This document shows, one piece after another, positions 17,909-56,395 of a DNA stretch of 64,000 nucleotides. Below the pieces are notes generated by a model. It did not search any database and was not told the DNA's origin. It was given only the letters and a program-made list of their open reading frames with translations. The stretch comes from an uncultured Gammaproteobacteria bacterium (GTDB lineage Bacteria > Patescibacteriota > Microgenomatia > UBA1406): assembly GCA_964414145.1 (NCBI GenBank), contig CAYPVH010000004.1:10849-74848 (forward strand), given 5' to 3'. A program made the position numbers and the translations under genes. Numbering within the stretch: the stretch's first letter is position 1; each line of letters begins with the position of its first letter.

Positions 17909-17989
17909 AGACTAAACATAGTAACATAAATGGCATACAGTTGTCCAGATAGAATTGTTAGACTGGTCACATTATTTAATAAAATTAAG

Positions 17990-18656
17990 AAAACCTAGTA
18001 GGAATCTAGGAATTTGGGATATAGGAATTTAGGAATATAAGAATAAATTCCAATAACCAAATACCAATTTCCAAACAAATCACAAAATACAAAATACAAA
18101 CAATAACAGGAATATATGAATATAAGAATTTAAGAATATAAATAAAAGCACGAAATCCAAATATCGAAATCCGAAATAATATCAAATAATCAATATCAAA
18201 TTATAAAACAGAACTCATAATTCATAATTCATAATCCGTAATACGTAATAGATAAATAGACTATGTGTCATGTTGAATCGTCGATTGAGGCGATGAAACA
18301 TCCCATGGGATTCTTCGTTACTCTCAGAATGACATGTGGAAAAAAAATAGAAAAATTGCTCTATTGTTTCATTGCTTCATTGTTCCCGCCTCTAACGGCG
18401 GGTGAATAGAGTGTCATCTTGAGCGAATGCAAAAGTTCCCATAGGATTCTTCACTTGCGTTCAGGATGACGGATAAAATAACCAATGACCAATTACCAAT
18501 TGACCAGATAATTACCAATTTTCAATAATCAAGGTAACAAGTACGAATTGAATGCTTAAATTTTTGTTTTGTTTGTTGTTTGAAATTTGTTTGACCTCCG
18601 ATTCGGAGGGTTTGGAAATTGTTTTTTTGGATCTTGGGATTTTATTTACCATCTTA
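17990..18656. repeat. noncoding modular low-complexity repeat tract A (family 1)
   Basis: Contains modules shared with 20800-21440, 25310-25390, 37020-37331 and lepA 21671-21740. For example, a 43-nt identical block at 18166-18208 equals 21049-21091. Also holds two imperfect palindromic elements (18260-18350, 18411-18471). Confidence 0.85.
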
Positions 18657-20786: not shown

Positions 20787-20799
20787 CAATTTTTAAATT

Positions 20800-21440
20800 G
20801 CTAGAAAAAACAAATCACAAATACCAATTTCCAAACCTTCCGAATCGGAGTGCAAACAAATCACAAATACCAAAAAGCATACTTAAAAAAAATTGCTACA
20901 TTGCTAAATTGTTAAACTGCCAGAAGAAAATAACAAGATCCAAGTAACAATTTCCAAACAAGTTCCAACCAACAAAATACAAACAAAGATAAGAATATAC
21001 TTCATTATCAATAACCAATAACCAATTGACCAAGTAAATCCGAATATTGAAATCCGAAATAATATCAAATAATCAATATCAAATTATAAAAAAGTACTTA
21101 TAATTCATAATCCGTAATTCGTAATAGATAAATAGAAAAATTGTTCCATTGCTTCATTGTTCTAATTAAAGTACAAGAGTACTATAGTACAGAAGTACTT
21201 TAGTAATATCAGCTTTTTATTTATTAACTAAAAACTTTAAATTCTAAACTTTCAGTGATGGGATCCTTCTCCGCCAGATGGCGGATCAATTACCAATTGA
21301 CCAAATAATCTCGAATTATCAATGTCAAATATTAAGTTAACAATAACACTATAACACTTTTATACTACTACACTTTATTTATTCACTACTTTATCAATTT
21401 ACAAATTTACTAAGTTACCAGCTTACTAACTTACCAATTT
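20800..21440. repeat. noncoding modular low-complexity repeat tract B (family 1)
   Basis: Colinear with tract A: aaatccgaa.. module at 21036-21063, cataattc..cgtaatagataaatag at 21099-21135, and aaaaattg..cattgcttcattgttc at 21136-21163. Also carries the ccaattaccaattgaccaa module and the ccgaatcgg hairpin module (20837-20852). Confidence 0.85.
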
Positions 21441-21455
21441 AAGTTGGATTTATCG

Positions 21456-21461
21456 TATAAT
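21456..21461 (+). promoter_or_regulatory. TATAAT -10 box 6 nt upstream of the lepA ATG (candidate leaderless transcript)
   Basis: cgTATAATacctagATG. Confidence 0.35.
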
Positions 21462-21467
21462 ACCTAG

Positions 21468-23270
21468 ATGAAAGATAGCTTGATTCGCAATTTTGCCATA
21501 ATTGCCCACATTGATCATGGTAAGTCTACCCTTGCCGATAGATTAATGGAAATAACCGGTCTGGTAAAAAAGGGTGACCACGCCGAACAATTACTAGATA
21601 CCAACCCTATTTCACGTGAGCGAGGTATAACGATTAAACTGGCACCAGTAACTATGAAATACAAATTATCAAATCCGAATATCGAAATCCGAAACAACAA
21701 AAAATCGGAAATCCATAATTCGCAATCCGTAATTCGTAATCAAGATTCAGAATACATTCTGAATCTTGTTGATACTCCCGGACATGTTGATTTTTCGTAT
21801 GAGGTTGAAAGGACTTTAGCCTGTGTTGAAGGTGTAGTATTATTGGTAGACGCTACTCAAGGCATTCAGGCCCAAACAATTGCCCATGCTTATAAAGCTT
21901 TGGAAATGAATCTAAAGATAATACCGGTAATAAATAAAATTGACCGCCCCGAAGCTGAGGTAGAAAAATGTGTAGCCGAGCTTTCGGATTTTTTAGGGGT
22001 TGCAGAAAAAGAAGTTTATAAAATATCGGCAAAAACGGGCGCTGGGGTTGAAGAATTACTGAGGGGGGTAATTGAAAAAATTCCCGGGCCGTTAATAAAC
22101 CCGGACACTAACACGAAGGCGCTAATATTTGATTCGTATTACGACCCTCATAAAGGGGTTATTGCCTTTGTACGCGTATTTGATAACAAAATTGAAAAAG
22201 GTGACCAACTGGAACTATATGCTTCCAAAACCAAATTTGAATCACTAGACGTTGGCATATTTAAGCTAAACCTGGAAATTAAAAGTGAAATTGGTTCGGG
22301 GCAGATCGGCTACGTTGTGACCAATTTAAAACGAATTCATTTGGTTAGGGTTGGTGATACGATTATTAACAACAACAAAACTACTCCCCTGCCCGGTTAT
22401 AAAAAGATTAATCCGGTGGTTCATGCCCACATATTTACAACTGACGCTGCCGACTACCCAAACTTGGAAAAGTCTTTGGAAAAGCTATATTTAAACGACG
22501 CTTCACTTGAATTTGAACCAATCTATTCCCAAACATTAGGACCAGGATTAAGGGTAGGATTTTTAGGACTGCTACATGCCGACGTAGTTCGCGAAAGGTT
22601 GGAACGGGAATTTGGCCAAAGTTTGGTGTTAACCCCCTCAAGAGTAGATTTCAAGATTATTAACAATGAATACTGGGAACCATATGCCAAAGTTAATATT
22701 ATTACACCAACTACCGAGTTGAGCAATGTGTTGAAATTGTGCCAAAGTTACAGAGCGGTTTTATTGTCTACCAATAATGTTAGTTTGGGCAGTCAGGTAA
22801 TGCTTACATATGAATTCCCCATGTCGGAATTGATGAGTAATTTTTATGATAAGTTGAAAAGCGTTTCTTCCGGGTATGCTAGTTTGGATTGGGAGTACAT
22901 TGAGCACCGAAGGGTAAACGCAGAACGGTTGGAAATTATGATTAACAACGACGTTGTTGAAGAGTTTTCGGAAATAGTTGTAGCAGAACGCGCCGATACA
23001 AGGGCAAGGACCATTGTAGACAAGCTAAAAGAAATAATTCCCAGACAAATGTTTGAGGTTAGAATACAGGCCAGGTATAAAGGTAGAATTTTAGCCAGTA
23101 ACAGAGTTGCTCCTTTTAGAAAAGATGTAACGGCAAAGTTATATGGTGGTGACCGATCGCGTAAAGACAAGCTCTTGAAAAAACAAAAGAAGGGTAAAAA
23201 ATTAATGAAGCAGATTGGCAAGATAGAAATACCCAAGGAATCTTTTATAAAACTTTTCAAATCCAACTAA
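21468..23270 (+). CDS. lepA: elongation factor 4 (LepA) carrying a repeat-derived insertion in the G domain
   Basis: G1 AHIDHGKST, G2 RERGITIK, G3 DTPGHVDF, G4 NKID, and the C-terminal LepA-specific tail (KLLKKQKKGKKLMKQIGKIEIP). See findings for the insert at 21666-21745. Confidence 0.95.
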   Translation: MKDSLIRNFAIIAHIDHGKSTLADRLMEITGLVKKGDHAEQLLDTNPISRERGITIKLAPVTMKYKLSNPNIEIRNNKKSEIHNSQSVIRNQDSEYILNLVDTPGHVDFSYEVERTLACVEGVVLLVDATQGIQAQTIAHAYKALEMNLKIIPVINKIDRPEAEVEKCVAELSDFLGVAEKEVYKISAKTGAGVEELLRGVIEKIPGPLINPDTNTKALIFDSYYDPHKGVIAFVRVFDNKIEKGDQLELYASKTKFESLDVGIFKLNLEIKSEIGSGQIGYVVTNLKRIHLVRVGDTIINNNKTTPLPGYKKINPVVHAHIFTTDAADYPNLEKSLEKLYLNDASLEFEPIYSQTLGPGLRVGFLGLLHADVVRERLEREFGQSLVLTPSRVDFKIINNEYWEPYAKVNIITPTTELSNVLKLCQSYRAVLLSTNNVSLGSQVMLTYEFPMSELMSNFYDKLKSVSSGYASLDWEYIEHRRVNAERLEIMINNDVVEEFSEIVVAERADTRARTIVDKLKEIIPRQMFEVRIQARYKGRILASNRVAPFRKDVTAKLYGGDRSRKDKLLKKQKKGKKLMKQIGKIEIPKESFIKLFKSN

Positions 23271-25261: not shown

Positions 25262-25912
25262 GTTAAGAGTTAAGAGTTAAGAGTTAGGTGATAATTAAAA
25301 GAGAGATATATTCGAAATCCGAAATAATATAAGAGTGCCAAAACCCAAAAAACAATTTCCAAACAAATCACAAACTACAAAAAACAAACAAAGATAAGAA
25401 TTTTGGAATATAGGATAATTTAAAATTAAAAATCAAAAATTAAAAATTTGAAGTAAAAAGTAACAACTAAGAATTTAAGAATATAAGACAAGAGTTAGGA
25501 GAAAAGAGTTAAGATAAGGTGAAAATAAACAGAAATCAATTTTCTACTTTCTTTTTTCTATTACTAATCTCCAATTTCTAGAAACTAATTTCTATTTATT
25601 AACTATAACACCATAATACTTTAATATCTTCACACTTTACATACTGGATTGACTAATGTATTTTGTCTAATATATCTTGTCTATTGAATAATGTATATTG
25701 TCTATTGAATAGTGTATATTGTCTATTGAATAGTGAATATTGTATATTGATTATTGTCTCTTGTATTCTGGATATTGACTAATGGATTTTGTCTACTGGA
25801 TACTGGATAATTCATACTGACTAATGTATATTGTCTAATGTATATTGTCTAATGTATATTGTCTAATGTATATTGTCTAATGTCTACTGTATATTGTATA
25901 TTGACTAATGAA
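25259..25912. repeat. noncoding repeat tract C (7-mer, 21-mer and 14-mer tandem arrays plus family-1 fragments)
   Basis: gttaaga x3-4 at 25259-25288. The 21-mer tgtctattgaata(a/g)tg(t/a)atat x3 spans 25678-25740. The 14-mer ctaatgtatattgt has 4 perfect copies plus 1 degenerate copy at 25821-25890. Family-1 fragments lie at 25310-25390. Confidence 0.9.
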
Positions 25913-25914
25913 TT

Positions 25915-26811
25915 CTACATTATCGAATAGCTGATTGTGTGGGTGGCTTTATCTGACATTTGCCTGTTATAGGCGTTAACAATGTTGCTCATTAAATAAG
26001 AAATCATAATTGGACCAGTACCGTTTATAACCGGTGTATAAAAAGCCGATTTTTCGGCAATTTCAGCCTCAACATAATCACCCATGGTTTTGCCCTCTTC
26101 TTTATGATAACCAAAATTAATAAGAGTTACCCCTTCTTTTATGTTTTGTGAAGTAATAATATTTTGACCGGTTGAAGTAATTAATATGTCGGCTTGTTTA
26201 TAAAAAACATCTGTGTCTGGGGTTTTTTTGTGCGTAATCACTAAGGCCATTTTGTGATCGACTAAAGTGTTTGCAATAGGTACGCCTGTTGTTTTTCCCC
26301 TGCCAGCCAAAACCACAAATTTTCTTTTGAATGATTTTTTAAAGAAATCTCTGTCTTTAGGAGTAACTTCCCAAGACGAACCATTTGTTGTGATGTATTT
26401 AAGTATGGAAAGAGTAGTTAAGCCAACCGGTGATTTGTAAGGAGTTTTGTATTTTTGCGCTTCCACTTCTTTGTTGAGTGGTATAAAGTTGTCTAGTGTT
26501 GGCGAAGACAGTTCTGGGGGGAGCGGCCGTTGTACAACAACGGCATGGTACTTTCTGCTATTTGCTATTTCTCTAAGATTGGTTGCAAAAACCTGAAAAA
26601 GTGGAGTTTGCGGGTAGTGAATTACTTCGAGGTCAATTCCTATTTCTTTGGCTAGTTCTTTCTTTTTCTGAATAAAAACATGGGTTAATTCATCATTACC
26701 GACGTAGAAAATAGCCGCTTTTGGTGGCGTTTCGTCTACATAATTTTCTTCTAGTCTTTTTTTAACTTTAGCTTGTATTTCTCTGGCTATTTCAAGACAA
26801 TTAATTTTCAT
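25915..26811 (-). CDS. folD: bifunctional methylene-THF dehydrogenase/methenyl-THF cyclohydrolase
   Basis: VVVQRPLP, AGRGKTTGVPIANTL, and TPVINGTGPIM. I place the start at the ATG at 26811 (MKINCLEIA), 4 nt after the gyrA stop, rather than at the listed 26838. Confidence 0.75.
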   Translation of the reverse strand: MKINCLEIAREIQAKVKKRLEENYVDETPPKAAIFYVGNDELTHVFIQKKKELAKEIGIDLEVIHYPQTPLFQVFATNLREIANSRKYHAVVVQRPLPPELSSPTLDNFIPLNKEVEAQKYKTPYKSPVGLTTLSILKYITTNGSSWEVTPKDRDFFKKSFKRKFVVLAGRGKTTGVPIANTLVDHKMALVITHKKTPDTDVFYKQADILITSTGQNIITSQNIKEGVTLINFGYHKEEGKTMGDYVEAEIAEKSAFYTPVINGTGPIMISYLMSNIVNAYNRQMSDKATHTISYSIM

Positions 26812-33099: not shown

Positions 33100-33450
33100 T
33101 TGTTAAAATCAATATTTATTAGACAGTATCCAATAGACACTAGACAGTATCCAATAGACACTAGACATTATTCAAAATACATTATTCATTAAGCTATATA
33201 TAATATTAATAGGACAACATTCTTCACAATAGAAACAAAACAGAATCTAGATCAAAAAAGTATTTTGAATATTAATTATTAACATTTACTATTTTGTTTT
33301 TGTGACTTTTCTGCTTTACTTTACTATGTATTTAAGCCATTGGATATTGGATAATGAATGATAGATAATAATTGCTACTGTATCTTGTCCACTGAATTCT
33401 GTCTTTTTTAATACTGGATATTGTATAATGAATAATAGCTATTGATTATT
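33100..33450. repeat. noncoding repeat tract D (family 2, inverted relative to tract C)
   Basis: The 21-mer tagacagtatccaatagacac x2 (33120-33161) is the reverse complement of the tgtctattg(a/g)a.. units of tract C. Also ctggatattg/ggataatgaat words at 33340-33440. Confidence 0.8.
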
Positions 33451-36080: not shown

Positions 36081-36143
36081 ATTAAATCATTATATCTGAA
36101 TTTTTGTTTTTGATTTGTTTATATTATAATAAGGTACTGTTTC

Positions 36144-36162
36144 TAAATTAATTGCCAGAGTG
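36144..36162 (+). repeat. duplicated 5' flank plus first 9 nt of tRNA-Leu
   Basis: taaattaattgccagagtg at 36144-36162 versus ttaaataattgccagagtg at 36298-36316. Confidence 0.8.
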
Positions 36163-36307
36163 TTCGAGGATCAAGAACTGTATACTTGCAGTTCGCAGTC
36201 CTGTACTGTGCTTGTCACTAGTACAGGATGAGTAGCAGAAATGGATAAGTTTTTTACGGGAGCATACGCTGAGACTGATATAATTGAAAGCAGTGCTTTA
36301 AATAATT

Positions 36308-36395
36308 GCCAGAGTGGCGGAATTGGCATACGCGCAGGACTTAAAATCCTGTGGCCCTTTGGGTCGTATGGGTTCGAGTCCCATCTCTGGCACCA
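36308..36395 (+). tRNA. tRNA-Leu (anticodon UAA), class II, CCA encoded
   Basis: GCCAGAG/CTCTGGC acceptor, CAGGA-CTTAAAA-TCCTG anticodon arm, a long variable arm, and ATGGG-TTCGAGT-CCCAT T arm. Confidence 0.9.
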
Positions 36396-36611
36396 GCCTT
36401 CGCTTAAGCTTCGGCCGGCAAGGCACGTTTATAGGTGGGATTAATTGAGTCTCGCCCCTCATAGTCCGTAGGACGACGTGGGGTCCCATCTCTGGCACCA
36501 GCCTTCGCTTAAGCTTCGGCCGGCAAGGCACGTTTATAGGTGGGATTAATTGAGTCTCGCCCCTCAAAGTCCACCGGTTGGCGGATGACGTGGGGTCCCA
36601 TCTCTGGCACA
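36396..36611 (+). repeat. two tandem ~105/110-nt units, each ending in a copy of the tRNA-Leu 3' end
   Basis: Unit 1 is 36396-36500 and unit 2 is 36501-36610. Their first 66 nt are identical. gtcccatctctggcacca occurs at 36378-36395 and 36483-36500, and its first 16 nt recur at 36595-36610. Confidence 0.9.
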
Positions 36612-36669
36612 TTATAAAGAGTTTGCAAGTATTCTTGCAATTACTCTTTGTTATGTCCGTTTTTTCATT

Positions 36670-36740
36670 CGGGATGTAGCTCAGATGGCTAGGCGGTCCG
36701 ACGTTATGTCGGACAGGTCGCTTTGCTTTCCCTTTTTTTC
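36670..36740 (+). pseudogene. tRNA-Pro-like 5' fragment / degenerate tRNA paralogue
   Basis: 26 nt identical to the tRNA-Pro 5' region including 3 nt of flank (36667-36692 = 36796-36821). A 7-bp hairpin follows (GTCCGAC-gttat-GTCGGAC), then AGGTCGC as in the variable/T-stem junction. There is no T arm, and a T-run lies at 36733-36739. Confidence 0.6.
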
Positions 36741-36798
36741 GATTGCTTGTTTATATTGTTCCTATGGAGTAATTAGTTTATAATTGGAATTACATATT

Positions 36799-36875
36799 CG
36801 GGATGTAGCTCAGATGGCTAGAGCGCACGCTTTGGGAGCGTGAGGTCGCGAGTTCAAGTCTCGCCATCCCGACCA
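36799..36875 (+). tRNA. tRNA-Pro (anticodon UGG), CCA encoded
   Basis: CGGGATG/CATCCCG acceptor, CACGC-TTTGGGA-GCGTG anticodon arm, and GCGAG-TTCAAGT-CTCGC T arm. Confidence 0.9.
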
Positions 36876-36992
36876 GTTCCAATCGCACAGTTTTCTAGAT
36901 AGATAGGATCCGTGCGAGTTCCCCGATACGCTTCGCTTTATCGGGACTAACTCAGAATAAACCTCACTTCGTATCGGTAACTCTGAGTTGAG

Positions 36993-37011
36993 CAAGTCTC
37001 GCCATCCCGAC
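36993..37011 (+). repeat. duplicated tRNA-Pro 3' end fragment
   Basis: caagtctcgccatcccgac at 36855-36873 (inside the tRNA) recurs at 36993-37011. Confidence 0.85.
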
Positions 37012-37019
37012 ACATAAAA

Positions 37020-37331
37020 AAATTCCAAATCTCAAATATCAATTTCCAAGCCCTCCGAATCGGAGGGCAAACAAATTACAAATACCAAAAAACAAATAAG
37101 AAGTAAATTTTTTCATGGCTAAGATACATGTCATGATGACAGGAGTGAATTATCAAGAATCAATTACCAATTGACCAATTAAGCAAATAAATCCGAAATC
37201 CGAATATCGAAACTCGAAACAATATCAAAGCACCAAAATCCAAAAAATTCACTTTGTCGGCCTGCTGGCGGACTTCGAGGGGCAGGTAAAATCAAAATAA
37301 ATTCCGAATAACAAACCTAGATACAAATACT
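37020..37331. repeat. noncoding modular repeat tract E (family 1), bracketed by a perfect 39-nt direct repeat
   Basis: Modules: caatttccaag-ccctccgaatcggaggg-caaacaaattacaaataccaaaaaa (37040-37091), caattaccaattgaccaa (37161-37178), and aaatccgaaatccgaatatcgaaa (37189-37212). The 39-nt repeat sits at 36912-36950 and 37332-37370. Confidence 0.85.
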
Positions 37332-37392
37332 GTGCGAGTTCCCCGATACGCTTCGCTTTATCGGGACTAATTCTGTCTTCTTGCTGAATTAA

Positions 37393-45540: not shown

Positions 45541-45579
45541 AAAATAAAGAAACCCGGAATATAAAATCCGGGTTTCTTT
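45541..45579 (-). terminator. rho-independent terminator after the 61-aa gene (stem usable in both directions)
   Basis: AAAGAAACCCGGA-(8 nt)-TCCGGGTTTCTTT with T-rich sequence on both sides. It begins 10 nt after the stop at 45590. Confidence 0.7.
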
Positions 45580-45589
45580 ATTTCTTTTC

Positions 45590-47708: not shown

Positions 47709-48158
47709 TTATAGTTCAAGCCTTACAAAGTCTCCAATATTAATGTTTTCACCTAGCTTTGTTATGCTTGCTTTTATTAGGTTTGCTACTGTAATTTTAG
47801 GATCTCTAATATAGGCTTGGTTTAATAACTCATCTGAAGTTTTTGGGTTCATAGAGGCGATTTGCATTGCAATTTCGTAAGCTAATTTTTTAAAGTCTTC
47901 ATTTTTTGCTACAAAGTCGGTTTGACATAAAAGCGATACCATCGCTCCTATTTTTCCATTATGATGAATATAAGATGTAATCACACCTTGTTCTGTAGCT
48001 TTTTCCTTTTTTTTGTCTGCTAATTCGACACCCCAGACTTTAAGCAATTCTTCTGCCTTCTTTATATCATTGCCGGCTTCTGATAAAGCTTTACTGACTA
48101 AAGCAATTGAAACACCTGTTTTACTTCTTAGTTCCTTTATTTTTTGTATTTTTGTCAT
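47709..48158 (-). CDS. tsf: elongation factor Ts (short form)
   Basis: UBA-like N-terminus IKELRSKTGVSIALVSKALSEAGNDIKKAEELLK and the core GKIGAMVSLLCQTDFVAKNEDF. Only 149 aa. Confidence 0.8.
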   Translation of the reverse strand: MTKIQKIKELRSKTGVSIALVSKALSEAGNDIKKAEELLKVWGVELADKKKEKATEQGVITSYIHHNGKIGAMVSLLCQTDFVAKNEDFKKLAYEIAMQIASMNPKTSDELLNQAYIRDPKITVANLIKASITKLGENINIGDFVRLEL

Positions 48159-55291: not shown

Positions 55292-56395
55292 TTATTTTAT
55301 TATTTTTTCTTTTTTAAGTACGTTAACAATTTTTTTATTAATATAATCCTTACTATATATTTTCCCGGAACTGTTTGTACAATCAATTTTTTTCCAATGT
55401 TTATGCATTCTACACAGTTTTAAGAACATCTCTTCACTTTTAATTCTATATTCAATGTCTTTTTCAACGATATCCAGTTTTTTACCCTTAACATAGTCTC
55501 TAATACTTTTTTTCTTGGTTAGCTCTAAACCTACCTGCCAGGGTACATAAAGATATATTACAATATCCTCTTTTGGTATTTTATGTACTTTATATTCCAA
55601 CTCATATATCCAAGATAAATACTTTTCTGATTCTTTTTTTGTACTGAATCTATTTCCCCAATGAGCCATATTCGAGGTAGCATACCGATTACAAAGAATT
55701 AAACCACCTTTTAATAAATAATCACTCATTTCTTCTTTTATTGATGCCCTGTCAAGTGCGTATGCGAGTGACGCTAAATACGGTGACAAAGTGTCTAAAT
55801 TACCAAAATCACCATTTAGCATCTTACCAACTATAGCACCATGAAATGAGGTATAGTAACGTGGGAAATCGTATATTCTATGAGAATACTTATTGTCTTT
55901 CAATTTTTTGGCTAACAACTTTACTTGGGTTGCCTTACCAGAACCATCACCACCATCAATAACTACCAGCTTTCCTTTTCTTTTATAGTTAAAGGCAACA
56001 TGATTAAAGAATTTTTTAATTATATAGCTAATATTATGTTTGTCATAGTGTTCAATAAAAATATTTTCTGAAGGATTTCCCAAAAGCATTGGACTTATCT
56101 GATCTGCATGGTCTTTGTACAAAAGAACTAAAACTGGCTTATTATTCATTAAAGCATAAACTATTTCACCGCCTATGGTTGTTGATGGAAATGAACCCTC
56201 AGCTACAATGCAATCTGCTTTTTCAATTAATTCCTTCCTCTTTTTGAAATATTTGGTGCTGGATGATTTTTTAAAATGATTACTCTTTATCAGTTTAATA
56301 TTTACAGGTAATTTACTGAATTGTTTTTCTAGAATCTTGAGTAGATCAGCATTAGAATTATTTATATCTTTCTCAGCTGTATAAAAAAAATACAT
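55292..56395 (-). CDS. tmk: thymidylate kinase fused to an N-terminal ~140-aa Rossmann-like (nucleoside 2-deoxyribosyltransferase-like?) domain
   Basis: The C-terminal part carries VVIDGGDGSGKATQ (P-loop), the DRY-like region CNRYATSNMAH, and a lid. The N-terminal part has no kinase motifs but contains ADCIVAEGSFPSTTIGGEIVYAL..KPVLVL. Confidence 0.75.
   Translation of the reverse strand: MYFFYTAEKDINNSNADLLKILEKQFSKLPVNIKLIKSNHFKKSSSTKYFKKRKELIEKADCIVAEGSFPSTTIGGEIVYALMNNKPVLVLLYKDHADQISPMLLGNPSENIFIEHYDKHNISYIIKKFFNHVAFNYKRKGKLVVIDGGDGSGKATQVKLLAKKLKDNKYSHRIYDFPRYYTSFHGAIVGKMLNGDFGNLDTLSPYLASLAYALDRASIKEEMSDYLLKGGLILCNRYATSNMAHWGNRFSTKKESEKYLSWIYELEYKVHKIPKEDIVIYLYVPWQVGLELTKKKSIRDYVKGKKLDIVEKDIEYRIKSEEMFLKLCRMHKHWKKIDCTNSSGKIYSKDYINKKIVNVLKKEKIIK

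Follow-up and report, generated by a model that had tools for sequence, protein, structure and literature searches.

An in-frame insertion of intergenic repeat DNA beside a flank-derived palindrome marks an insertion hot spot in lepA genes of the candidate phyla radiation

The lepA gene, encoding the translation GTPase LepA (EF4), was analysed in a 64-kb stretch of DNA from an uncultured bacterium (contig CAYPVH010000004.1; the whole stretch is called the window, and positions refer to it). The gene carries an in-frame insertion of 84 nucleotides (nt), or 28 amino acids (aa), whose DNA derives from intergenic repeat modules of the same genome and whose 3' end forms a perfect palindrome with the conserved codons that follow. 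We lean towards the view that positions 21666-21749 are a recent, translated in-frame insertion left by repair of a break or a replication fork, with snap-back synthesis and ectopic templating, and not the product of transposition of the kind known for Rickettsia palindromic elements (RPEs) or transposable elements of the miniature inverted-repeat type (MITEs). The original prediction for this stretch had described an in-frame insert of intergenic repeats with a hairpin, and had likened it to RPE insertions. Its core reading stands and the RPE framing does not, and the more interesting result lies outside that framing: lepA contains, throughout the candidate phyla radiation (CPR), a hypervariable site at which insertions accumulate, flanked by hairpins that bear the marks of snap-back synthesis.

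From the G2 motif (GITIK) to the G3 motif (DTPGH) the protein has 44 aa. The four homologues that ranked closest in the search (62-67% identity) have a spacer of just 16 aa (LAPVTMRYGEYTLNLV and similar), and LepAs from outside the CPR have one of 20-21 aa. The insert was delimited against these 16-aa spacers and against solved LepAs. Residues ~72-93 of the query are without counterpart in the Aquifex (2ywe) and E. coli (3cb4/3deg) structures, and the HMMER match to the Aquifex and E. coli LepAs breaks exactly at the insert. The alignment implies a spacer of 21 aa in E. coli, in agreement with the figure of about 21 aa given in the original prediction. The surplus peptide noticed earlier is an in-frame, lineage-specific insertion, absent from these four homologues, and its length corresponds to twelve heptamers. 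The open reading frame (ORF) is uninterrupted, as had been predicted.

A check proposed earlier was to place the insert on an EF4 structure or model. An AlphaFold2 model computed from a 64-sequence alignment (mean predicted local distance difference test score, pLDDT, 83.5; predicted template modelling score, pTM, 0.79) was confident outside the insert, and showed coil for residues 67-94, between beta2 and beta3, with a pLDDT below 50 for residues 73-91. The model suggests an otherwise normal LepA in which the beta2-beta3 hairpin of the G domain has a disordered loop at its tip, and at the protein level a disordered, functionally neutral loop is the most likely interpretation. Translation of such inserts is supported by the lepA genes that were picked by their hairpin, as described below, regardless of the upstream frame. 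Among the matches listed, all complete cases (62/62) were in frame and stop-free, and the two other forward frames of the inserts were open in just 15/65 and 8/65 cases (12-23%). Since complete inserts are all in frame and free of stops, we conclude that the inserts are translated, and the same statistics exclude translational bypass, splicing and pseudogenisation as a general explanation.

The insert DNA consists largely of two heptamer-based modules, A and B (Table 1). Module A has further copies at 18153 and 21036, each with 1 mismatch, and a third one with 2 mismatches at 37196, while the copies of module B at 18223 and 21099 differ by 3 mismatches each; neither module found a match in 100 shuffles. 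A and B keep the same order and orientation in all copies. In a blastn comparison module B matched 21100-21125 with 92% identity over 26 nt, and in local alignment ~76 nt of lepA (21671-21746) were collinear with 21036-21129, the middle part being ~18 nt shorter in lepA. These results bear out the coordinates reported earlier for the modules and their intergenic copies, and also the claim that the insert DNA derives from the intergenic modules of this genome. The insert is the sole segment with lag-7 periodicity within any coding sequence (CDS) of the window; the window has 8 such segments, and the other seven are intergenic or at gene edges. Similarly, of all CDSs in the window, lepA alone matches intergenic DNA significantly, and no other CDS among the 57 ORFs of the 64-kb window carries the modules. 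The long intergenic tracts themselves (17909-18656, 20787-21467, 25262-25914 and 36081-37392) are mosaics of degenerate arrays with a 7-nt period, small GC-rich hairpins and long palindromic elements, and several of these pieces recur in order.

The direction of transfer could be read from a close relative with the same pyk-lepA synteny, taken from a different metagenome by way of a 90% cluster (P0121/L207). Its lepA is ~80% identical in nucleotide sequence, and its LepA is 85% identical overall when the loop is counted as gaps, and nearly identical outside the loop. At the same codon it carries an unrelated insert of 77 aa, for a G2-G3 spacer of 93 aa (L207 2704-2982), which illustrates the speed of loop turnover. 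The L207 insert also has a perfect palindrome of its own (14+14, CCAAGTTTAGAGTA|TACTCTAAACTTGG), formed from its own YTLNLV codons, and each of the five differences from the arm in the window is matched in the opposite arm. Modules A and B are found at the orthologous place of the L207 pyk-lepA spacer, and L207 lepA is without them. The intergenic copies therefore predate the split of the two relatives and the lepA copy is younger, which sets the direction as from intergenic DNA into lepA. In a neighbour-joining tree computed with the loop excluded, the LepA of the window was placed among insert-less proteins. From these comparisons the particular lepA segment is not ancestral.

The original prediction had allowed that the segment might prove ancestral and ordinary for its lineage. 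This holds for the site, where inserts are indeed ordinary, but not for the particular segment. Spacers longer than 23 aa were found in 60/119 Microgenomates-type LepAs, with inserts that are unrelated, of low complexity, and interspersed in the tree with insert-less proteins. A second, independent genome set had been assembled without regard to inserts and was used as an unbiased control; it contained mostly distant LepAs and no close relatives. There, 12 of ~59 CPR-type LepAs vs 0/19 non-CPR LepAs had a spacer of 25 aa or more. Several of the other inserts likewise match repeats of their own genomes: 37 nt at 97% for L084, 23-34 nt at 88-96% for L208 (including its own pyk-lepA spacer), and 18 nt at 100%, in a GC hairpin, for L027. 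Lag-7 arrays were also present inside the lepA loop of L011, L017, L028 and L032. Judged from the sequences compared, this lepA codon is a fast-changing insertion hot spot across the CPR.

The second line of evidence is the junction palindrome. In the window it is a perfect 13+13 inverted repeat with arms 2 nt apart. The 3' arm reads ATT CTG AAT CTT G and thus encodes the conserved I-L-N-L-V; the 5' arm repeats these ILNLV codons in inverted form, as the reverse complement. The earlier description of a perfect hairpin whose 3' arm encodes ILNL was correct and even slightly too modest, as the arms have 13 nt instead of 12, but the hairpin does not lie directly after the insert, because its 5' arm is the insert's own 3' end. 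A 9-nt stretch, CAAGATTCA, extends a seed palindrome, GAAT-ac-ATTC (GAATACATTC), into the 13+13 palindrome, and the inner GAAT..ATTC of this seed corresponds to ancestral E-Y-I codons. The window has just two perfect inverted repeats with stems of 12 nt or more, the lepA hairpin being one of them, and in dinucleotide shuffles stems of 13 nt or more arose at a rate of 0.03 per window. Folded as DNA, the hairpin reached -10.9 kcal/mol (z = -5.9). The CTG codon in its 3' arm is rare, with 6.3% of the Leu codons of the window. A search against Rfam gave no family at gathering score for the hairpin and only four tRNAs for the window; readings of the hairpin as a known RNA or as a terminator (no T-run, not flagged) were dropped. 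The other long perfect inverted repeat, at 45542-45583, is intergenic, has 17-nt arms and an 8-nt loop (AAATAAAGAAACCCGGA...), and looks like a bidirectional terminator.

The original prediction treated the hairpin as an appendage of the insert. The hairpin is real, but the same architecture, with covarying stems, is present in dozens of CPR lepA genes, a pattern beyond the scope of that prediction. A metagenome scan for the 18-nt core ATTCAGAATNNATTCTGAAT identified at least 120 stretches, and among the matches listed, to which the following counts also refer, 73/120 (64 unique) were located exactly at the junction position of a CPR lepA. The junction palindrome is thus present in at least 64 distinct CPR lepA genes. 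Its stem covaries with a synonymous Leu codon, TTG occurring with AAT and CTG with GAT: base 1 of the second Leu codon pairs with base 1 of the N/D codon in 57 of the 64 genes (A.T in 33, G.C in 24), and both states are found in at least 9 LepA subtypes. The mean perfect extension beyond the core was 3.3 nt, compared with 1.7 +/- 0.23 nt in shuffles. Because the N/D choice tracks a synonymous Leu codon, it cannot reflect selection on the protein. In the unbiased genome set, stems of at least 12 nt at the junction were found solely in insert-bearing CPR lepA genes, and all insert-less and non-CPR lepA genes had stems of 7 nt or less.

An equivalent structure exists at the left border of some inserts. 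In 17/78 insert-bearing loops the left flank likewise has a perfect inverted copy, 9-16 nt long; the 5' arm of this left hairpin is formed by the conserved V-R-M-I-W/Y codons, its 3' arm is the inverted copy and encodes the peptide PNH[AST], and variants of the Arg codon in the flank are matched in the copy. The inverted flank copy explains why PNH[AST] peptides recur in these proteins. Stem mismatches showed no excess of G.U pairs and many of the palindromes are spacer-free, which together point to copying at the DNA level.

Table 1. Location of lepA, its insertion, the palindrome arms and the repeat modules in the window, with palindromes of other CPR lepA genes for comparison
Feature	Sequence	Position	Strand	Remarks
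lepA / EF4		21468..23270	+	600 aa; all G motifs intact; Pfam GTP_EFTU, EFG_C, LepA_C
84-nt (28-aa) in-frame insertion	LSNPNIEIRNNKKSEIHNSQSVIRNQDS	21666..21749	+	between beta2 (61-66) and beta3 (95-102)
module A copy (AAATCCG/AATATCG heptamers)	AAATCCGAATATCGAAATCCGAAA	21671..21694	+	0 mismatches to pattern
module B copy (CATAATT/CGTAATT heptamers)		21714..21740	+	intergenic copies at 18223 and 21099
palindrome, 5' arm	CAAGATTCAGAAT	21741..21753	+	encodes QDSE; the insert's 3' end corresponds to its first 9 nt
palindrome, 3' arm	ATTCTGAATCTTG	21756..21768	+	encodes conserved ILNL(V) of beta3
nearest donor-like A...B unit, followed by AGAT		21036..21129	+	pyk-lepA spacer, 635 nt upstream of the insert
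second full intergenic A...B copy		18153..18253	+	module matches, local alignment
partial intergenic copy		37196..37245	+	module A and a middle part resembling the lepA copy
palindrome in L003, L049	CAGATTCAGAAT..ATTCTGAATCTG			arm follows local synonymous codons
palindrome in L017, L083, L084	TCAAATTCAGAAT..ATTCTGAATTTGA			arm follows local synonymous codons

Two features of repair scars were found in these genes. A reverse-complement copy of the flank directly adjoins that flank (21741-21768, and recurrently elsewhere), and the filler has an identifiable template elsewhere in the genome (in the window, L084, L208 and L027). The insert lies, in this reading, at the solvent-exposed beta2-beta3 turn of the G domain, and a break or stalled fork at these turn codons would be the initial event. 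In the case of the window, the break would fall 5' of GAA (E95), so that the bottom strand would have a 3' end reading ...CAGAATGTATTC. This right-side 3' end could fold back and pair, through its terminal ATTC, with the GAAT of the E-Y-I seed, and snap-back extension would then yield exactly the 9 new top-strand bases of the palindrome. Synthesis would next switch to an ectopic low-complexity template, namely the intergenic A...B repeat unit, before the end is rejoined, and selection would retain in-frame, stop-free products in a permissive loop. The overall pattern, in the order flank, inverted flank, foreign templated DNA, inverted flank and flank, is the one that snap-back at both break ends, with subsequent copying of an ectopic template and rejoining, would leave. 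Perfect palindromes are prone to breakage (by SbcCD in E. coli). The newly made perfect palindrome may therefore be fragile and the site may break again, giving rise to a self-perpetuating hypervariable hot spot across the CPR. Such fragility would account for the build-up of long inserts and for the differences in the loop from one relative to the next, and quasipalindrome template switching could keep the arms identical.

Several points count against this scenario or limit it. The window insert has the right-hand hairpin only and is missing the left-flank hairpin. At the borders, AGAT is shared after module B with an offset of 2 nt, and the left border is without clear microhomology. Within the modules, the insert shares 92-96% identity with the window's intergenic copies, which have a middle part ~18 nt longer and can therefore be called donor-like at most. 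The breaks and the acting enzyme are putative; the window encodes RuvABC, RecG, MgsA and a PD-(D/E)XK nuclease, none of which is diagnostic for break repair by a specific polymerase or ligase. The covariation of the stems (Fisher p = 3e-10) is a statistic not corrected for phylogeny. Furthermore, one core, ATTCAGAAT..ATTCTGAAT, dominates across phyla and uses the rare CTG codon. It could indicate that the sequence itself is constrained, that it is a binding site, or that it was shared by ancestry or transfer, and random snap-back would account for none of these. Finally, perfect palindromes persist in very many lineages, and this needs ongoing regeneration or conversion, or else selection.

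In another reading the palindrome would be a selected functional element, either an mRNA hairpin or a DNA operator, and the peptide loop would be adaptive; ribosome pausing, mRNA processing or stability, an operator for a dimeric protein and a diversifying LepA surface are variants of this idea. A selected RNA or DNA function is a live rival, although we judge it unlikely. The covarying hairpin in at least 64 distinct lepA genes of many CPR lineages argues for it, as do the use of the rare CTG codon, hairpins in a few genes without extra insert (L163 and L205, with a 20-aa spacer), and, in other genomes, predicted RNA structures of the whole insert region whose stability far exceeds that of shuffles (z -3 to -6). 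However, the stems are exact Watson-Crick, with the above-mentioned lack of G.U excess among mismatches, many are spacer-free perfect DNA palindromes, and the hairpin is neither terminator-like nor matched by Rfam. In sets not selected for hairpins, about two-thirds of the insert-bearing LepAs are without a long perfect palindrome, and the insert-less CPR lepA genes of the unbiased set are entirely without the hairpin. We consider it quite unlikely that a small non-autonomous mobile element (MITE-like, RPE-like or similar to repetitive extragenic palindromic (REP) sequences) transposed into lepA with a preference for palindromic targets and with the hairpin as recognition site, comparable to the hairpin-recognising IS200/IS605 insertion sequences or the REP-associated tyrosine transposase (RAYT) systems. 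Modules A and B are dispersed and multi-copy, a single palindrome core dominates across phyla, RPE-like palindromic inserts exist in other CPR genes (a PheT-like ORF in L112 and L116, and L148 lepA, see below), and in-frame RPE insertions are an established precedent (PMC10969869). Yet folding of the intergenic copies showed no gain in stability over shuffled sequence (z = -0.87 and +0.19), which ruled out a MITE-like palindrome, and modules A and B are, by eye, only ~65% inverted-similar. No terminal inverted repeats or target-site duplication were seen by eye; the direct repeat AATACA at the borders is, on the same inspection, an ancestral pair of Tyr codons that insert-less homologues also have. 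The lepA copy is not a full unit, its middle being shorter, inserts of other genomes at the same codon represent several unrelated repeat types, and the 5' arm always matches local synonymous codons, not an element consensus. Transposase, RAYT, integrase and reverse transcriptase families gave no Pfam match among the 57 window ORFs scanned.

Two further explanations fare worse. The heptamer array might have grown in place by slipped-strand expansion, and its likeness to the intergenic arrays might reflect a shared mutational or compositional bias. The 7-nt periodicity of the insert, unit-sized indels in related lepA inserts (the ...FPISN.QFPINE... series of L087, L114, L117, L165 and L194) and an insert in L086 that looks grown from its own ILN codons fit this idea, which we nevertheless regard as highly improbable: the modules of 24 and 27 nt match their intergenic copies at 24/24-23/24 and 24/27-24/26 positions, in the same order and orientation and with 0 matches in shuffles, and convergence to such a degree is implausible. 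Least credible of all, and barely worth entertaining, is the idea that the assembly is chimeric at this place, or that the segment goes untranslated as an intervening sequence which translational bypass or RNA processing takes out. Repeats are easily misassembled, but no intergenic copy is identical to the insert, which is divergent from all of them and in frame, and analogous inserts are present in dozens of independent assemblies. As for bypass, identical TAC codons (Y65 and Y96) flank the insert and superficially resemble take-off and landing codons; there is no stop after the putative take-off codon Y65, however, and the frame and stop statistics given above led us to reject it.

The comparison with RPEs is worth making more precisely. 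RPE and MITE insertions within ORFs have been reviewed (PMC10969869), and the lepA insert shares with them that dispersed intergenic repeats stand in frame within conserved housekeeping genes, are compatible with the fold and are translated as surface peptides. RPEs, however, are discrete palindromes of ~100-150 bp that encode a peptide specific to their family and occupy many genes per genome. The lepA modules are non-palindromic heptamer arrays that occur in lepA alone within 64 kb, the insert differs wholly between relatives, and the junction palindrome comes from the host's flanking codons. The analogy drawn by the original prediction consequently survives in its functional part, a repeat turned into a tolerated surface peptide, and fails as structural membership, since the modules are non-folding arrays with a 7-nt period, without terminal inverted repeats or target-site duplication by eye and without a transposase-type family among the window ORFs scanned.

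The preferred repair reading has closer parallels in synthesis-dependent microhomology-mediated end joining (SD-MMEJ) and polymerase-theta end joining, with their snap-back and trans templated insertions (PMC2943611, PMC5728401), and in foldback priming (PMC10622511). A bacterial enzyme is also known, the group-II-intron-like G2L4 reverse transcriptase, which performs microhomology-mediated end joining with snap-back synthesis (bioRxiv 10.1101/2022.03.14.484287). Common to SD-MMEJ and lepA are the reverse-complement copy at the junction, filler from another locus and priming from a short seed (here GAAT..ATTC, E-Y-I). Known SD-MMEJ cases are mostly eukaryotic experimental repair junctions of a few to tens of nt, whereas the lepA inserts would be fixed scars in a bacterial gene, with inverted copies of 9-17 nt and filler of up to ~230 nt, that recur at one codon across a superphylum and for which the enzyme is putative only. 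Another parallel is quasipalindrome template-switch mutagenesis (the Ripley model, studied in E. coli), which turns imperfect inverted repeats into perfect ones. A process of this type would keep the arms identical, and apparently "covarying", without selection. To our knowledge, it is known for point and cluster mutations in short quasipalindromes, but not for palindromes that flank inserts or for hot spots of long insertions.

Programmed translational bypassing, as in T4 gene 60 and the mitochondrial "byp" elements, concerns gaps that are unconstrained in frame and stops. It resembles the lepA case in the short insert in a conserved gene, the hairpin and the identical codons on both sides, but differs in that every complete lepA insert is in frame and open. 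The short tandemly repeated repetitive (STRR) sequences of cyanobacteria are intergenic heptanucleotide direct repeats. Like these and the TAACTGA heptanucleotide repeats of Beggiatoaceae (PMC4679880), the arrays of the window are abundant, tandem and mostly intergenic, with a period of 7 nt. They belong to other taxa and have other units, however, and form degenerate mosaics in composite units of ~100-500 nt; STRR and Beggiatoaceae repeats have not been reported as sources of in-frame inserts. No published description of the lepA hot spot and its inserts, or of flank-derived palindromes in the CPR, was found in full-text searches of the literature.

Palindromic or repeat-type inserts were also seen in other places of CPR genomes. 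A PheT-like ORF of ~620 aa contains in-frame perfect palindromes with arms of 13-23 nt in L112 (739-2607, minus strand) and L116 (2960-4804, plus strand). They are located near aa 75-92 and aa 511-527, differ in sequence between L112 and L116, and have both arms within the insert, which makes them RPE-like. The lepA gene of L148 has a second in-frame palindrome (482-510), encoding NPQGSWNPEGV, in the linker between the G domain and domain II. In L084, a family-2 glycosyltransferase gene (1572-1616) carries an in-frame insert of the heptamer type, ENSKIQISRSKQIPNSKFEIKN, that matches repeats of the L084 lepA insert. Thus lepA is the most conspicuous case of a wider CPR tendency, not the sole case.

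The identity of the gene is clear from the GTP_EFTU G domain (G1-G5), EFG_C and LepA_C (E = 9e-39), and the best PDB matches of the query protein are solved LepA/EF4 structures. LepA is highly conserved, yet dispensable in E. coli under laboratory conditions, and the label "essential" used earlier was too strong. Upstream of lepA are genes for MetK, a Crp-family regulator, a membrane protein and pyruvate kinase, and downstream are a Mur-ligase-like and a glutaredoxin-like gene. Homologues place the organism within the Microgenomates/Roizmanbacteria part of the CPR, and the window has a GC content of 33%. Three other genes, all on the minus strand, stand out: ribosomal protein L1 (56411-57163) has a Lys/Glu-rich N-terminal extension of ~70 aa, thymidylate kinase (55295-56395) has an N-terminal extension of 145 aa, and EF-Ts (47712-48158) has just 149 aa. 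The split Pfam match of L1 had been considered a second in-frame insert, but is accounted for by the Lys/Glu-rich extension.

The intergenic regions hold further repeats. Composite units at 17990-18530, 20800-21330, 25262-25955, 33100-33200 and 37020-37330 contain arrays (CCAAT../CAAACAA.., AAATCCG.., CATAATT.., ATTGCTTC.., ACCAATTGACCA) whose succession is the same each time they recur. For the array at 25613-25955 the periodicity is 14/21 nt, with at least 14 copies. Two long imperfect palindromic elements (18262-18338 and 18407-18472) are of the widespread "GTCAT.CTGAG...CTCAGAATGAC" type, which elsewhere is translated within the lepA loop, as "RHPELVSGS..IPDQVRNDD" in L085 and "VIPVKTGIH..RLRGND" in P0108. 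Small GC-rich hairpins (e.g. TCCGCCAGATGGCGGA) lie amid AT-rich arrays at 18386-18403, 21270-21288 and 37052-37068; a near-identical GC hairpin, TCCGCCAGCTGGCGGA, is translated as "NPPAGG" in the L027 lepA loop and recurs elsewhere in the L027 locus. Tandem units of ~105 nt follow tRNA-Leu(taa) (36308-36395; region 36308-36610). Two of them, 36378-36467 and 36483-36572, are 99% identical, a further stub occupies 36583-36610, and each unit ends with a copy of the tRNA 3' end (GTCCCATCTCTGGCAC). They look like serial integration/excision scars, or like a small element that targets the tRNA end. Nearby are an incomplete pseudo-copy of the tRNA-Pro 5' half, which precedes the intact tRNA-Pro(tgg) by ~130 nt, and two copies, 98% identical and 420 nt apart, of a 42-nt hairpin-containing repeat (GTGCGAGTTCCCCGATACGCTTCGCTTTATCGGGAC...); the coordinates of the pseudo-copy and the repeat are 36671-36720, 36799-36875, 36912-36953 and 37332-37373.

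More generally, and as a tentative proposal that we think may well turn out to be wrong, hairpin-primed templated insertion at AT-rich seed palindromes could be a characteristic and hitherto undescribed mutational process of the CPR that writes intergenic repeats into permissive loops of conserved proteins. If this is true, the process makes self-renewing fragile palindromes and hypervariable loops, with the lepA codon ~66/95 as the most conspicuous hot spot. In a stronger version of the proposal, the conserved ATTCAGAAT..ATTCTGAAT palindrome would be a recognised functional site that drives the process. Protein insertions are usually seen in finished form, but here the donor DNA, the chemistry of the junctions and the turnover between relatives are still readable. 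For annotation, the repeat-like peptides, "PNH.." and ".SEY" in CPR LepAs have a trivial origin at the DNA level and should not be taken for functional motifs. The finding also bears on break repair in the reduced, uncultivated bacteria of the CPR, and the data suggest that their unusually long, repeat-filled intergenic regions feed sequence into coding regions.

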